A stretch of 64,000 nucleotides of DNA from an uncultured Nitrospiraceae bacterium (lineage in GTDB: Bacteria; Nitrospirota; Thermodesulfovibrionia; Thermodesulfovibrionales; Dissulfurispiraceae). The position numbers and the translations under genes are program-made. The stretch lies in the NCBI GenBank assembly GCA_963705105.1, contig CAVPIW010000005.1, positions 192,001 to 256,000 of the forward strand. The letters run 5' to 3'. The first letter of the stretch is position 1. Each line of letters starts with the position of its first letter. A model generated the notes under the pieces. The model had not been told where the DNA came from. It saw nothing but the letters and a program-made list of their open reading frames with translations, and ran no database searches. Below, one piece after another: positions 25,734-57,733 of the stretch.

Positions 25734-25861
25734 GAGGGAATGTTAAACCGGAATGCCCGCGAAAGTGTCTGTTTATTTAACATGGTTCGCTATAGTTTAA
25801 CGAGATTTCCCCGTAATGGCAAGGCAAGGGCCACCGGGGTGCGGTTCGTGCCACCCGCCAT

Positions 25862-26051
25862 CCGGGAAGGCGGGGCGCATGCGCCGAAAACCTTGATGCG
25901 GCGACACCTTACGCGTCACAGAAGACGACTTTTCAACTCAATGGTCGATCGCACGGAGAGTGGAAGCCTGAAAGACGAACCTGACGAGGCTTATCATCGC
26001 CTTCAGCAAGGATTTGAGGCGCTTCACCCCGCCTTTGCACGCAACTGGAGG
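25862..26051. mobile_element. MITE-like element family C, copy 1
   Basis: GAAGGCGGGG..GCGCCGAAAACCTTGATGCGGCGACACC...CGCCTTCAGCAAGG..TTTGAGGCG..CCCGCCTTT. Confidence 0.8.
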
Positions 26052-26544: not shown

Positions 26545-26590
26545 GGCGCCCACCAGCCCGTCCATGAACCGTGTCGTCGCATACGCCCGA

Positions 26591-26780
26591 CAGGAAGGCG
26601 GGGTGCACGCGCCGAAAACCTTGATGCGGCGACACCTTAACCATCACACCAGACGACTTTTCAAGCCAACGGTCAATCTAACAGAGAGCGGAATCCTGAG
26701 AGACGAACCTGACAATGCTCATCGTCGCCTTCAGCAAGGGTTTGAGGCGCTTCGGCCCGCCTTTCACGCGACTGGAAGGT
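26591..26780. mobile_element. MITE-like element family C, copy 2
   Basis: Direct repeat of 25862-26051. Confidence 0.8.
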
Positions 26781-32769: not shown

Positions 32770-32861
32770 GGTTAACGCCGAGTTGAGCGGGGTTCTCATA
32801 ATAAGGCCCGCCGGAGGCGGAGCCGGGTTATGGGAACCTTCGCTCGAACGACTTGTTAGCG
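32770..32861 (-). other. attC site (inside ORF-less cassette B)
   Basis: R'' CGCTAAC, GTTCGAGCG/CGCTCAAC L boxes, R' GTTAACC. Confidence 0.8.
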
Positions 32862-32970
32862 CCGCGCGAGTCAGCGCGCGGTGCGGTTTCATCGTCAGAT
32901 GAAAAACAAGGAGTAAGAGCGGTACTTTCCGCTCAACTCGGCGTAAGCGTCGCGCGCAGCGCGGCGCTTA
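32776..32970 (-). mobile_element. ORF-less gene cassette B (195 bp)
   Basis: Lies between crossovers G|TAAGCG and G|TTAACC; hairpin-rich; internal 21-bp mirror of its junction at 32929-32949. Confidence 0.65.
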
Positions 32971-33219
32971 CAGGGGCCGCTGAGCGGCTGCGACGGAGGC
33001 GGGAAGCCCACGAAGTTGTGGGCTGGTAGCTGCAGGAAGCAGTGCGCTCCAGTGGCTTGATGGGCGGCCTCTATCAGAGGACGCACAGCGAGACGCTGGG
33101 GGTGCAAGCACAGCGGCCCCTGATGGGGCGAGGCCTCCTTATTGTCGTTCATAGTCCCTGCCCATTGTATTTGTCGTTATTTATCGTGGGCAGGGACATT
33201 TTAAATATCCTCGCCCCAT
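32971..33219 (-). mobile_element. ORF-less gene cassette A, copy 2 (249 bp)
   Basis: Starts at attC crossover G|ATGGGG; 3 substitutions versus 34090-34338. Confidence 0.75.
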
Positions 33220-33304
33220 CGAAATGGCTGAGCCGCAGGGGAAATATAATTAATAAAAAAATACCTACAGTTAATCCCCTGTCGGATCGAGCCAGGTGTT
33301 ATCT
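33214..33304 (-). other. attC site with GAT crossover
   Basis: R'' AGATAAC matches cassette start GTTATCT; TGGCT..CAGGGGA/TCCCCTG..AGCCA stem; R' GATGGGG. Confidence 0.75.
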
Positions 33305-33319
33305 TTTGAGTTTTAATTT

Positions 33320-33544
33320 TCATTGTTTGTTTTTATTCTTGTAGCCAAAAAGGACAAGGCCGGCAAGACCGCCTAATATTGCAGAAGCAAATGTGGCCAT
33401 GAACCACCAGCCGTATGGATTCCAGCCTTTAGTTTTGTCCAAGATATAGAACCATACACCAGTAATAATGGTAGCGAGGACCATTCCCGAAATGACGAAG
33501 AGGATAGGATTTCCTTTTTTAGTATTTTGCCCTAAATATTCCAT
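33320..33544 (-). CDS. Cassette gene: small 2-TM membrane protein
   Basis: AT-rich ORF filling the space between two attC sites. Confidence 0.65.
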   Translation of the reverse strand: MEYLGQNTKKGNPILFVISGMVLATIITGVWFYILDKTKGWNPYGWWFMATFASAILGGLAGLVLFGYKNKNKQ

Positions 33545-33563
33545 TTGTCTTATTTAATTTTGA

Positions 33564-33627
33564 AGATAACGCTTGGCATCACCGGGAGCCAGTCTTATCG
33601 GCGATCCGGTGGATGCCGTGGTTATGG
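33564..33627 (-). other. attC site
   Basis: R'' CCATAAC overlaps stop; GGCATCCACCGG/CCGGTGATGCC stem with extrahelical base; R' GTTATCT. Confidence 0.85.
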
Positions 33628-34074
33628 GAATTCAAATCCTTCCTTGACACGGATATATCTGAACTTTGTTCCTGTCCCGACGTGCTCAAATAATATCTCT
33701 GAGTCTGTAGATTTCGTGATTAAATATTTGTCGGTAATGTATCGGGACTCCCCAAGATGCCTACCGTTAATATGCGTAGTAACCGTTGTTTTCAAGCTAC
33801 CATCCAAATGCCAGGTACCTGATTCCTCTTGATTCCATGTGGGCTTGCCATTATTGATAATACAAAATCTTACATAAAAGGTTCCGTCTGCCTTTCTCTG
33901 AAAAATTGCTTGGATATCACCATCTATTCCTTCCTGCTCATGAACGCCAAACCAATAGCCGATAAGCCGTTCTTTCTCTGGTCCATCCAATGAGGGTGGG
34001 TGTATCCTACTCGCGCACCCAAAAAATATTGGGATCAGAAGAATCGACCATAAACCTAAATGTTTCCAGTTCAC
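33622..34074 (-). CDS. Cassette gene: lipoprotein, lipocalin-like beta-barrel
   Basis: GAGGA RBS and GTG start, lipobox IFFG-C, LIGYW and ESGTW motifs. Confidence 0.65.
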   Translation of the reverse strand: MNWKHLGLWSILLIPIFFGCASRIHPPSLDGPEKERLIGYWFGVHEQEGIDGDIQAIFQRKADGTFYVRFCIINNGKPTWNQEESGTWHLDGSLKTTVTTHINGRHLGESRYITDKYLITKSTDSEILFEHVGTGTKFRYIRVKEGFEFP

Positions 34075-34089
34075 TAATTCCTCACATAA

Positions 34090-34338
34090 CAGGGGCCGCT
34101 GAGCGGCTGCGACGGAGGCGGGAAGCCCACGAAGTTGTGGGCTGGTAGCCGCAGGACGCAGTGCGCTCCAGTGGCTTGATGGGCGGCCTCTATCAGAGGA
34201 CGCACAGCGAGACGCTGGCGGTGCAAGCACAGCGGCCCCTGATGGGGCGAGGCCTCCTTATTGTCGTTCATAGTCCCTGCCCATTGTATTTGTCGTTATT
34301 TATCGTGGGCAGGGACATTTTAAATATCCTCGCCCCAT
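34090..34338 (-). mobile_element. ORF-less gene cassette A, copy 1 (first position, 249 bp)
   Basis: Removing it restores ATTAAATG|TTATGT, a GTT core at the putative attI. Confidence 0.75.
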
Positions 34339-34360
34339 CATTTAATATGACAAACAGGCG
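34333..34360 (-). other. Putative attI site
   Basis: First crossover upstream of intI: GTCATAT-TAAAT-G|ATGGGG; no attC-like palindrome on the intI side. Confidence 0.55.
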
Positions 34361-34376
34361 AATCATTCATGAAATC

Positions 34377-34406
34377 ACTTTAGCACAAAAAAGGGGAGTT
34401 CCGCAA
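34377..34406 (-). promoter_or_regulatory. Candidate Pc cassette promoter
   Basis: TTGCGG-18 nt-TAAAGT with TGn extended -10, pointing into the array. Confidence 0.4.
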
Positions 34407-34494
34407 AGGATATAAACCCCGCAAATCAATGGGCATTAATTGAAAATATATGGTATATTTTGGTATTAAGAACTATAAATGGTAATGGTGTTAT

Positions 34495-35802
34495 ATGAGC
34501 AATACGGCACAGCATAGCCCGGAACAGCTTCCCGACTTCCAGTCGTTTCTCCGGGAGCGCAAGCTGGCTCCGGACAAGAACATCCCTTATCTGGCCTATT
34601 GGGTGAGCCGTTTTCTCTCCTTTGCGCGGAAGCGCGACATCGACGCCTCAGAATACCGCGAACCGGCCGTCATCGAGTTCCTTGAAGCGCTCCGGTCCGA
34701 CACGCGGGTGCTCGACTGGCAGCCGCGGCAGGCCGAAGACGCGCTGAAGCTCTACTATGTCAATTTTCTCGGCAAGTCGCCGGCGCAGCCGGGCGGTTCT
34801 GCGCAGCCCGATTCCGTGCCGGCTGTGCTGCGGGAGGTCAAGCGCCACCTCAGGCTGCGGCATTACTCCTACAGCACGGAGAGAACGTATCTGCAATGGG
34901 CGGAGCGGTTTTTCTCCTACGCCCTGCATTCCGGACAGAAGGCCATTGCCGATTTGTCTTCAAAGGATGTCAGGGACTTCCTCAGCCACCTGGCCCTGAA
35001 ACAGAGGGTCTCGTCCTCGACGCAGAACCAGGCCTTCAATGCGCTTCTGTTTCTCTTCCGCCATGTCCTGGGCAGGGAAACAGCGGACCTCGGCGGCGCG
35101 GTGAGGGCGAAACGGGGGCCGAAGCTGCCCGTCGTGCTGTCCGTGGAGGAGGTGAAAAGACTCCTCTCGGCCATGAGTGGGACGACGCGGCTCATGGCGG
35201 AGCTGCTGTACGGCGCGGGGCTCCGTCTCATGGAGCTTGCCCGCCTGCGCGTCAAGGACATCGACTTCGATGCGCAGACCATCTTCGTCCGAAGCGGCAA
35301 GGGCGACAAGGACCGGTCGACGGTGCTCCCGGATGCTGTCAGGGATCGTTTGCAGGAGCATCTGCGCCAGGTGAAGGAGGTGCACGAGCGGGACCTCGGC
35401 CTGGGATACGGGGAGGTCCACCTGCCCGACGCCCTCGGCCGGAAGTATCCGAATGCCGGAAAGGAATGGGCCTGGCAGTATGTGTTCCCGTCGGTAAAGC
35501 TGTCCGTCGATCCCCGGACCGGACGGGTGGGGCGGCATCATATGAGCGATACGGCGATCCAGGAAGCGGTGAAGCGTGCTCTCCGAAAGGCGGGCATCGC
35601 AAAGCACGCGTCGGTGCACACGCTCCGCCACAGCTTTGCGACGCACCTGCTGATGGCAGGGGTGAATATCAGGGAGGTGCAGTCACTCCTGGGACACAAG
35701 AACGTGGAGACGACGATGATCTATACGCATGTGCTCAGAGATATGTCTAATGTACCCGCAAGCCCGCTCGATGCGCTGTACATGGATCATCCGGTTCGAT
35801 GA
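34495..35802 (+). CDS. intI: Integron integrase with N-terminal extension
   Basis: HYSYSTERTY, STQNQAFNAL, LLYGAGLR, KGDKDR, integron insertion ALGRKYPNAGKEWAWQYVFPS, HTLRHSFATHLL, LLGH, TTMIYTHV. Confidence 0.95.
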   Translation: MSNTAQHSPEQLPDFQSFLRERKLAPDKNIPYLAYWVSRFLSFARKRDIDASEYREPAVIEFLEALRSDTRVLDWQPRQAEDALKLYYVNFLGKSPAQPGGSAQPDSVPAVLREVKRHLRLRHYSYSTERTYLQWAERFFSYALHSGQKAIADLSSKDVRDFLSHLALKQRVSSSTQNQAFNALLFLFRHVLGRETADLGGAVRAKRGPKLPVVLSVEEVKRLLSAMSGTTRLMAELLYGAGLRLMELARLRVKDIDFDAQTIFVRSGKGDKDRSTVLPDAVRDRLQEHLRQVKEVHERDLGLGYGEVHLPDALGRKYPNAGKEWAWQYVFPSVKLSVDPRTGRVGRHHMSDTAIQEAVKRALRKAGIAKHASVHTLRHSFATHLLMAGVNIREVQSLLGHKNVETTMIYTHVLRDMSNVPASPLDALYMDHPVR

Positions 35803-35849: not shown

Positions 35850-36073
35850 CAGGAAAAGGCCTATCCTCGCGCCAAGACGCCAAGGCCGCCAAGAACCGCA
35901 AATGCACAAGTGCTTAAAAACTTTCTTAGGATAAAGGTCTTTATCTTTCTTTGCGCTCTTTGCGGCTTTGCGTGAGACTATTCCTGGTTTTCTCTTTTAC
36001 GACCAGGAAAAGACATTCCTCGCGCCAAGACGCCAAGGTCGCCAAGAACCGCAAATGCACAATTGCTTAGAAT
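35850..36073. repeat. Two ~70-bp direct repeats with 9-nt periodic core, flanking an inverted related unit
   Basis: CTCGCGCCAAGACGCCAAGG(C/T)CGCCAAGAACCGCAAATGCACAA at about 35866 and 36019; TTTGCGCTCTTTGCGGCTTTGCGTGAGA at about 35950. Confidence 0.75.
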
Positions 36074-36075
36074 CT

Positions 36076-36165
36076 GTCCTCGTTTTCGAGGTCTCGCTGC
36101 AGGATATTTTGGACAGGGGTGAACTGAGCGGTTTATTTGGCGAAGAGATCATGCCCTATCCTCAT
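36076..36165. repeat. Two terminal fragments of MITE family A
   Basis: TCCTCG..GGTCTCGCTGCA..TTTTGGACA followed by GTTTATTTGGCGAAGAGATCATGCCCTATCCTC. Confidence 0.6.
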
Positions 36166-39861: not shown

Positions 39862-40030
39862 GGGGAGGCTGATGTGGTGAAAAGCCTTTCCGCTAAGATA
39901 CCTTATTCGTCACCAGACCACACTTTGCCGTGTCGATCGATACCAAATGCCCGTCAGGCAGCAAGCGCTCAACACATCGATATGTCTCATCATCGCATTG
40001 GAAAGGCTTTGAACCATATCTGCCTTCCCC
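39862..40030. mobile_element. MITE-like element family D, free-standing copy
   Basis: About 30-bp imperfect TIR GG.AGGCTGATGTGGTGAAAAGCCTTTCC / GGAAAGGCTTTGAACCATATCTGCCTTCCC. Confidence 0.8.
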
Positions 40031-41782: not shown

Positions 41783-42150
41783 TACCTCACAGTTGCATGA
41801 AAAGGCGGGACAAAGTGCCTCAAAGCCTTGCTGATAGCGACATTGATCATTTCATTCCATATGCTGTTCCGCCGGGAAGGCAGATATGGTTCAACGCCTT
41901 TCCAATGCGATGATGAGACATCTCAAGATGTTCAGCGCCTGTTGCCTGACAGAATTTTGGCATCAATAGACACGGCAAAGTGTGGTCTGGTGATGAATAA
42001 GGTATCTTAGCGGAAAGGCTTTTCACCACATCAGCCTTCCCTTCGCGTGTGTTTATCATCTGGATCCTGTTTGTTGTCTACCGTCTACTGTCTAATTTTT
42101 CGTGGCATCTTCGCCCCGCCTTTCCGGAAGGCCTGTGCAACGATGAGGTT
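41783..42150. mobile_element. Composite MITE: family B ends enclosing a family D element (41874-42041)
   Basis: B left end CAGTTGCATGAAAAGGCGG..CTGATAGCGA, D element, B right end GGCATCTTCGCCCCGCCTTTCC. Confidence 0.8.
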
Positions 42151-57642: not shown

Positions 57643-57733
57643 GCCCAACATCGAGTTGAGAGGGATATAATAATGATGCCCGCCCGAGGCGGCGCGGGAT
57701 TAGGGGTACCTTCGCTCGAAAGACTTGACTCCA
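57643..57733 (-). other. Orphan degenerate attC site
   Basis: Aligns with attC 32770-32861 (CGAGTTGAG, GCCCGCC.GAGGCGG, ACCTTCGCTCGAA.GACTTG); R' GTTGGGC intact, R'' lost. Confidence 0.7.

Follow-up and report, generated by a model that had tools for sequence, protein, structure and literature searches.

A conserved variant of the integron cassette with a second left arm complementary to its own excision junction

INTRODUCTION

On the current view, an attC site is recognised only if its spacer is unpaired, it has extrahelical bases and its AAC/GTT core is paired. We analysed a 64,000-nt stretch of DNA from an uncultured Nitrospiraceae bacterium (the window; its genome is G000 below), in which two kinds of cassette, A and B, contain the reverse complement, or mirror, of the joint formed when the cassette is circularised. 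An earlier note on this DNA had let the mirror stand in for the attC hairpin, with the excised circle folding into a fully paired dumbbell, and had treated A and B as dissimilar cassettes that share one design. The question is whether such a mirror replaces attC, whether it is maintained, and which fold the integrase could use.

RESULTS

The window holds an intact integron consisting of intI, attI and a cassette array that adjoins them. The integrase gene (34495..35802, plus strand) encodes 435 aa and scores 431 bits against TIGR02249 (cutoff 265). The protein matches VchIntIA (2a3v) with an E value of 7e-76, and its catalytic residues R, K, H, R, H and Y, equivalent in the alignment to IntI1 positions 146, 171, 277, 280, 303 and 312, are intact. 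At the equivalents of IntI1 P109 and D161 the aspartate is kept, while position 109, which sits in a variable linker, differs. About 110 extra N-terminal residues (34495-34825), common to many relatives, stand ahead of the part aligned with VchIntIA. The attI core (34339..34351, minus strand) runs up to the crossover G at 34339 and lies 156 bp from the intI start; the same motif is found 152-158 bp from intI at four homologous loci (L022, L031, L034 and L052). The minus-strand array begins with A1, continues with genes of 149 and 74 aa, A2 and B, and then has a DUF4160/DUF2442 pair and additional genes. The two genes between A1 and A2 form ordinary gene cassettes (33570..34089, without a Pfam match, and 33220..33569, both minus strand), and the attC of the second is the site that precedes A2. 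Elsewhere in the window, an attC at about 57650-57730 (G000:C5:249652-249727) is 82% like the terminal stem of B, ends a gene cassette beside an insertion sequence and has no mirror. Other intergenic repeat families (191, 168 and 71 nt; 25846-26036, 26574-26764, 39862-40029, 41874-42041 and 35855-36078) are MITE- or REP-like and unrelated to the array.

Unit A is 249 bp long and present in two copies, A1 (34090..34338, the first cassette, core G|AT) and A2 (32971..33219), with 3 differences between them; unit B (32776..32970, core G|TA) is 195 bp long and present once in the window. All features of the units lie on the minus strand, and the ends of A1, A2 and B are exactly integron crossovers. 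As the earlier note had stated, circularisation at the crossover G gives a joint whose exact reverse complement lies inside the unit: 23 bp in A, 12 to the left and 11 to the right of the joint (34230..34252 in A1, 33111..33133 in A2), and 21 bp in B, 15 + 6 around the joint (32929..32949). The mirrors do carry ATC for GAT and TAC for GTA. The longest junction mirror in 1000 dinucleotide shuffles per unit was 10 bp for A and 11 bp for B (mean about 5), and the two gene cassettes between A1 and A2 have no junction mirror of at least 10 bp. Misassembly, which the note had named as a way for its reading to fail, is ruled out: the 23-bp mirror occurs in two independent metagenome assemblies (L022 and L031), and contigs of sequencing run X1 span A1 (34088-34600, 3 differences) and most of B.

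The mirror does not stand in for the attC hairpin, however. Each unit keeps a normal left arm that had been overlooked, with R'', spacer and an L'' that has a bulged base (34163..34185 in A1 and 33044..33066 in A2, R'' with ATC; 32841..32862 in B, R'' with AAC). This inner arm gives each unit an attC with R'', L'', L' and R' boxes, an extrahelical base and an unpaired spacer, and the mirror is a further, outer and perfect left arm. Both left arms have the same right arm, made of L', spacer and the crossover G (32971..32986 in A2; 32776..32790 in B). Each unit is thus a pair of left arms in competition for one right arm, and the mirror is an add-on to attC, not a replacement. The parts follow in the order start (the rest of R'), small loop, mirror, middle hairpins, inner left arm, terminal stem and L'-spacer-G. 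A hairpin within the small loop of A2 (33153..33198) is dispensable, since the homolog L043 lacks it. In B the cassette start folds back on the R half of the mirror with a 3-nt loop (the cap hairpin, 32944..32970), and a degenerate copy of L' right behind the mirror (32917..32922) is a local competitor for its L half; comparable motifs are found in homologs.

The cores of these sites depart from AAC/GTT, being GAT or GAA with an inner ATC in A and GTA in the B of the window; other B-type units have a GTT core. This counts against a 'textbook attC' and not against a cassette, since IntI1 tolerates a paired GAT, GTA or GAA (second- or third-position changes) in one partner (PMC2811028). The description of the units as ORF-less holds: closed ATG frames in 34 homologous units range from 0 to 70 aa without a common length, although short ORFs do overlap unit A and L081 is an exception with a short antisense frame.

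Homologs lie where cassettes are expected, at attI or attC crossovers in several lineages, often in multiple copies, with crossover-G ends, varying neighbours, one orientation only and no target duplication. A motif from the inner arm of A was found at 27 metagenome loci, and one from the middle and inner arm of B at 9 genome loci (6 in Nitrospirota, the others in Smithellaceae, Proteobacteria and Ignavibacteriales). The non-duplicate motif matches number 43, with 34 complete units. DNA searches gave matches in 4/61 and 5/401 genomes, G000 included, so that carriers are uncommon among the genomes searched. Blastn against plasmid and phage collections gave no match to the units; viral contigs gave one truncated A, no match to the B cap pattern, and 8 matches to a looser motif, none with the two-arm architecture.

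G000 itself has four full copies of A, 98.8-100% identical, and a fifth that stops at the end of the mirror, behind the attI of a second integrase (G000:C12:170013-170122, L009). In this truncated copy the mirror half and the unit end are direct repeats, 10/12 alike, and slippage may explain it. All five copies and B lie within cassette arrays; one, behind a cassette with an inverted gene, comes after an attI-like 12-mer within an array (G000:C15:877-889), and another is without its first base (G000:C15:2871). Further copies of the 74-aa cassette and of a toxin-antitoxin cassette in G000 have different neighbours at that crossover; on contig C12 the cassette after the 74-aa gene is not A. Other multi-copy genomes are G054 (4 pattern matches), G656 (2) and G657 (6 full or partial). 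Contigs from public runs diverge from the window at 34088, 32970 and 32776-32777. In run X1 a different cassette follows A1 at the crossover seen in the window, and in contigs of runs X1 and X15 B precedes attI-like flanks. One X1 record (record 3) has B at an attI-like flank with 22 nt of the cap hairpin skipped between short direct repeats, either a true deletion or an effect of assembly. Circle joints numbered 0 in contigs of four sequencing runs, material in which assembled contigs cannot show absence. At the start of one contig an A end is joined to an A start (L025, 1-297), which may be a tandem copy or the trace of a circle.

Flanks other than att sites were seen at the fragments L015 and L035 and at L046 and L050; the latter two, from Nitrospirota and Ignavibacteriales, are near-identical B-type units, and the flank at which they are inserted shows no attC and no attI motif of the usual kind. 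An 11-nt remnant resembling the start of B lies between an A unit and the next cassette in L035 (minus strand). In L002 (1735-3232 and 1-730) the attC ahead of A appears interrupted by a putative group II intron that carries a reverse transcriptase frame, and a presumed RAYT-like transposase gene stands at the close of the array. On another contig of G000 (C6, about 19000-112000) simple GCC and GA repeats are abundant, unlike the rest of the genome, and this may be foreign sequence in the assembly. Other kinds of element were rejected as accounts of the units. MITEs or insertion sequences do not fit, since the units have no enzyme, no terminal inverted repeats (their ends pair with the internal mirror and not with each other) and no target duplication. 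Retron and bridge-RNA readings fail on the missing enzyme and duplication and on a mirror that is continuous across the att crossover. RAYT-like genes do occur near some loci, yet the unit ends are att crossovers.

A and B are less dissimilar than had been thought. A mirror scan free of motifs, run over 164 kb of further arrays, yielded L065 and L069, and a search with the cap pattern found a type of 228 nt; all combine the B cap and middle motif with A-like attC arms. The two are thus linked by intermediates and probably form one superfamily of mostly gene-less cassettes; they are therefore no independent evidence of convergence, and the claim that two separate cassettes had arrived at the same design is not supported. 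The inner arm was called in 46/47 complete units. It is partly built into the search motifs of A and B, and its conservation in A is partly built in because A was selected by this motif; it is present as well in L065, L069, L081 and L101, found without the motif. A scan of the whole of G000 for mirrors de novo gave 95 matches, 4 of them the A and B units, 1 a reverse reading and the remaining 90 mostly simple-repeat noise outside arrays.

Reduced and fused forms also occur. L013 is a minimal unit of cap and canonical attC only. In one array of G657 (C276, L117-L120) a full B-type unit, whose core has changed and whose mirror matches it, occurs together with a 99-nt unit that has only the mirror, a unit cut after L'' and a 52-nt unit of cap, mirror and mini-arm. 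L081 (minus strand, 266-626) is a first-position mirror cassette whose small loop holds the short antisense frame, hydrophobic, with a ribosome-binding motif; the cassette next to it has a second arm-like stretch too. In L021 (minus strand, about 75-940) a hydrolase gene cassette runs through its own R'' and spacer into the body of A from the L half of the mirror onward, so that the gene now ends with the attC of A; this single case fits an L-side spacer exchange or a microhomology deletion.

If the mirror matters, it should change with the junction, and the expectation that it covaries was borne out. With a perfect mirror defined as at least 14 bp, at least 5 of them left of the joint, 38 of 47 complete units (sister copies included; a 52-nt unit and the minimal L013 set aside) keep it; it is broken in nine (L002, L005, L017, L018b, L040, L051, L052, L081 and L109). 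One of these, L109, is a 228-nt unit at attI on the minus strand that starts with AT where its sister copies and its own mirror have TT/AA. In A (n = 25) the mirror matches its own junction at 22.9 of 26 positions and those of other members at 18.1; for B (n = 9) the values are 23.3 and 17.0. Counts were anchored on the junction because MAFFT mis-registers the unit starts. The 15 distinct A junction types match at 232/255 positions (shuffled pairing: mean 164, maximum 212) and 9 B/C types at 119/126 (mean 82, maximum 114); since kin are not independent, these counts are not probabilities. Junction types are scattered across the tree of unit bodies, and the mirror tracks indels also (L043 and L011). 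The control was a set of 81 cassettes called at these loci by a heuristic finder that needs GTT and is blind to non-canonical cores. An ORF is present in 77, and 74 of the 77 mirror fewer than five bases left of the joint. The three exceptions are two miscalls that end in B units and one true gene cassette with a fully paired spacer (L037).

One could hold that the mirror is a by-product with no role in recombination. A single event, either fold-back copying over the joint of the circle or dimerisation of minimal cassettes, would have created it, and template-switch correction would keep it. Such correction of quasi-palindromes is a way to keep a mirror perfect, and start and mirror have changed together between sister copies within one array, as copying would have it. 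The B mirror continues straight into the cap hairpin, the order in B (cap, arm, degenerate right arm, second cap, attC) looks like a dimer of a unit such as L013, and L013 itself exists. Yet in 15 junction types the A mirror has kept up with both substitutions and indels across the 75-170 nt that separate it from its partners. It also ends close to the end of L' and is lax at a single defined position. We regard this account as quite improbable.

That lax position is informative. Mirror mismatches cluster at the pair beside the canonical bulge (12/29 distinct types; 0-2/29 at each of six neighbouring positions). Moreover, where the core and the inner arm disagree, the mirror triplet goes with the core of its unit, with GAA/TTC against an inner ATC in 6 types and GTA/TAC against an inner AAC in 3. 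Because the mirror and not the inner arm follows the core in these nine types, and because the mirror is lax beside the bulge, the substrate of the integrase may be a hybrid fold that takes its R box from the mirror and its L box from the inner arm. Against this, 17/29 types pair straight through the bulge position, 9/47 mirrors are broken, and the 99-nt unit has a mirror only while a 108-nt unit has a canonical arm only.

The folds were computed as equilibrium models without IntI, SSB, supercoiling or kinetics, and forced-pair energies of circles on rotated sequences. The dumbbell with a paired R-spacer-L stem, postulated for the circular single strand, was reproduced on both strands; the mirror stem has a probability near 1 and pairs the start in 35/38 circles, and the bottom strand is the more stable in 39/39. 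G-T wobbles, split 9:9 between the strands, carry no strand signal. In the computed folds of the single-stranded bottom strand, in circle and array alike, both ends are paired with the mirror and the canonical attC is buried; the mirror fold also takes the R' of the upstream site. In 37/37 circles the inner R box is unpaired (canonical R pairing 0.00 at equilibrium); when the mirror was masked, at a median cost of 27 kcal/mol, 12 of the 37 regained the inner L stem and only 5 the R box.

Could the perfect stem itself be the recombination site, on either strand or as a duplex partner, like attI or attG, for a folded attC? Its stem probability is near 1, the 99-nt mirror-only unit sits at an attC crossover, L037 shows a fully paired spacer in an ordinary cassette, and attG sites (GWT core) recombine double-stranded with attC (bioRxiv 2022.09.11.507474). 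All rates available are for IntI1, to which the integrase of the window is about 45% identical. With this enzyme a paired spacer costs 27-fold when the bulges are kept and 8.5e4-fold in attI x attC when the extrahelical bases are removed as well (PMC2727003); efficient recombination of both strands is reported for certain bulge-less sites whose spacer is normal (PMC5027507). A symmetric perfect stem should also yield units opened at the mirror, and no such inverted isomer was seen among the units found. The integrating dumbbell of the earlier note is unlikely on these two grounds, the near-dead bulge-less paired attC and the missing isomer, and the retention of the inner arm in L065, L069, L081 and L101 counts against it too; taking the stem itself as the site therefore seems highly improbable.

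The hybrid fold costs a median of +4.8 kcal/mol in the circle and the full canonical fold +17.9 (32 units); the values are +2.8 and +17.8 for A2 and +4.3 and +16.9 for B. It remains a minor state, within 3 kcal of the optimum in only 11/32 units, which weighs against its use, as does the 130- to 490-fold drop of attC x attC deletion when the bulges of one partner are deleted (PMC2727003). In the array, folds could be evaluated for 11 of 15 units behind attC; in all 11 the normal two-hairpin excision state lies at +17.7 and a four-way junction at +3.4, while 14 ordinary cassettes give +4.6 and +3.9. As the four-way state is equally accessible in ordinary cassettes, it is not special to the units; what is peculiar to the units is therefore the closing of the normal excision route. 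The two-hairpin state stays at +15.6 after the mirror is shuffled (3 shuffles each). Core mismatch and middle hairpins thus contribute to the closure as well, and so small a rescue is a further point against the hybrid reading.

A simpler reading of the same folds is a lock or kinetic switch. Here IntI would catch the inner arm, the only substrate, ahead of the longer-range pairing of the mirror, whose sole effect would be to make the unit and the cassette upstream of it less prone to excision, or to shield the circle from nucleases or SSB. The dominance of the mirror fold, which takes the upstream R' too, is what a lock predicts, and attC sites of low pfold excise poorly (PMC5371416). The short local competitor right behind the mirror suits a switch, and the inner arm of B keeps an AAC able to pair with the GTT of the next cassette. 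A lock does not account for an inner R'' that fails to follow the unit core in nine junction types or for an inner R box that forms in so few circles even with the mirror masked, and a pure brake fits badly with near-identical multi-copy spread. We consider it unlikely.

An attI-like motif stands directly before 18/36 classifiable units under a loose rule, with intI 152-158 bp away in only 5 of these 18 and counts that are not independent. This excess in first position could point to a regulator useful to the host, such as a promoter, a terminator, a structured RNA or a poor R box that jams attI, with selection acting on the first position. Gene-less cassettes with promoter activity have been reported (PMC8876359; bioRxiv 2023.11.21.568050), and A and B have weak terminator-like matches. 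A consensus scan found no sigma-70-like site inside A or B, however; the terminator count is 5 against 2.3 +/- 1.9 by chance, the units have no match to a known structured RNA in Rfam, and the wobbles are even between strands. A regulator would moreover leave the crossover-centred mirror unexplained, and half of the units are not first, so that we hold it to be very doubtful.

DISCUSSION

A and B are a real, conserved variant of the integron cassette, and their two-arm design is new. The evidence suggests that, as passengers, they exploit or disable the integrase of the array in an undescribed way. Our tentative preference, which falls somewhat short of being probable, is that A and B are selfish IntI passengers that would move through the hybrid fold and resist normal excision. 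Every step of this model beyond the folding is one that we infer. The mirror would supply the R box, the spacer and the first L pairs, so that any core (GAT, GAA, GTA or GTT) is paired by the unit itself, and the inner arm would supply the remaining L stem. The DNA between the arms would loop out at the usual position of an extrahelical base, and strand choice would be kept. After insertion, normal two-hairpin excision would be shut, the more so with a non-GTT core; with IntI1 the attC x attI rate of 2.2e-3 falls to 6e-6 once the core is a GTT/ATC mismatch (PMC2811028). With both flanking sites mismatched or buried, retention is predicted, strongest at attI: a unit behind attC might still leave through a folded four-way junction with all four boxes paired, whereas one behind attI would have no such exit, and units would accumulate in first position.

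A bolder form of this model, which we think somewhat doubtful, is that the units represent a widespread class of integron parasites, in which the mirror builds the R box and spacer, a three-way junction replaces the extrahelical base and the exit is a pre-folded four-way junction. If true, such elements would not depend on a GTT core and could regain the first position and stay there; they could also transport cargo within the small loop, as in L081, and hand an attC to neighbouring genes, as in L021, and this would bear on the way cassettes form. Under any reading the units, evidently mobile and with a fully paired alternative laid over a normal attC and non-GTT cores, are ready-made substrates for asking which folds an integrase accepts. 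They also bear on sequence-encoded brakes in arrays, on whether non-coding cassettes are selfish, as was proposed for gene-less, paralogous cassettes (PMC1382264), and, through the cap, dimer and fused forms, on the origin of new cassettes, which is largely unknown (PMC5371416). Further integron literature considered here includes PMC2095811 and PMC7439510.

With the cassettes of class 1 integrons and the VCR cassettes of V. cholerae the units share G|NN crossover ends near intI and attI, an R''-spacer-L'' arm with a bulge, a variable terminal stem, L'-spacer-R' and a more stable bottom strand. They differ in the added second left arm, a gapless complement of spacer and L', and in the frequency of GAT, GAA and GTA cores; compared with their ordinary neighbours, their canonical fold is about 13 kcal/mol less accessible. 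Other non-host passengers of cassette arrays are the attC-targeting IS1111/IS110 elements, group IIC-attC introns and MITEs. Unlike these, the units have no enzyme of their own and are inserted at the crossover, not inside attC. A second junction-spanning arm is unreported in the main texts of the mostly open-access literature searched; attC alignments in supplements may contain some.

The closest relatives in content are the non-coding paralogous cassettes of Vibrio (PMC1382264) and the promoter-bearing ORF-less cassettes (PMC8876359; bioRxiv 2023.11.21.568050), which like the units are ORF-less, conserved over their full length and often paralogous. In the accessible text of these reports only classical attC sites are described, and the terms 'inverted repeat' and 'secondary structure' are absent from that of PMC1382264 and bioRxiv 2023.11.21.568050; from the promoter-bearing kind A and B differ in having no sigma-70-like site inside. 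The attG and Delta-attI sites (bioRxiv 2022.09.11.507474; PMC12901181) are non-hairpin duplex partners with GWT cores, and one copy of A resembles them in following an attI-like 12-mer inside an array, but they are genomic duplex sites and not folded parts of cassettes. The mirror fold itself is a natural version of the engineered VCR sites mut20 and mut21, which have a paired spacer and no extrahelical bases (PMC2727003), with the difference that here a mobile unit combines the paired structure with a normal arm.
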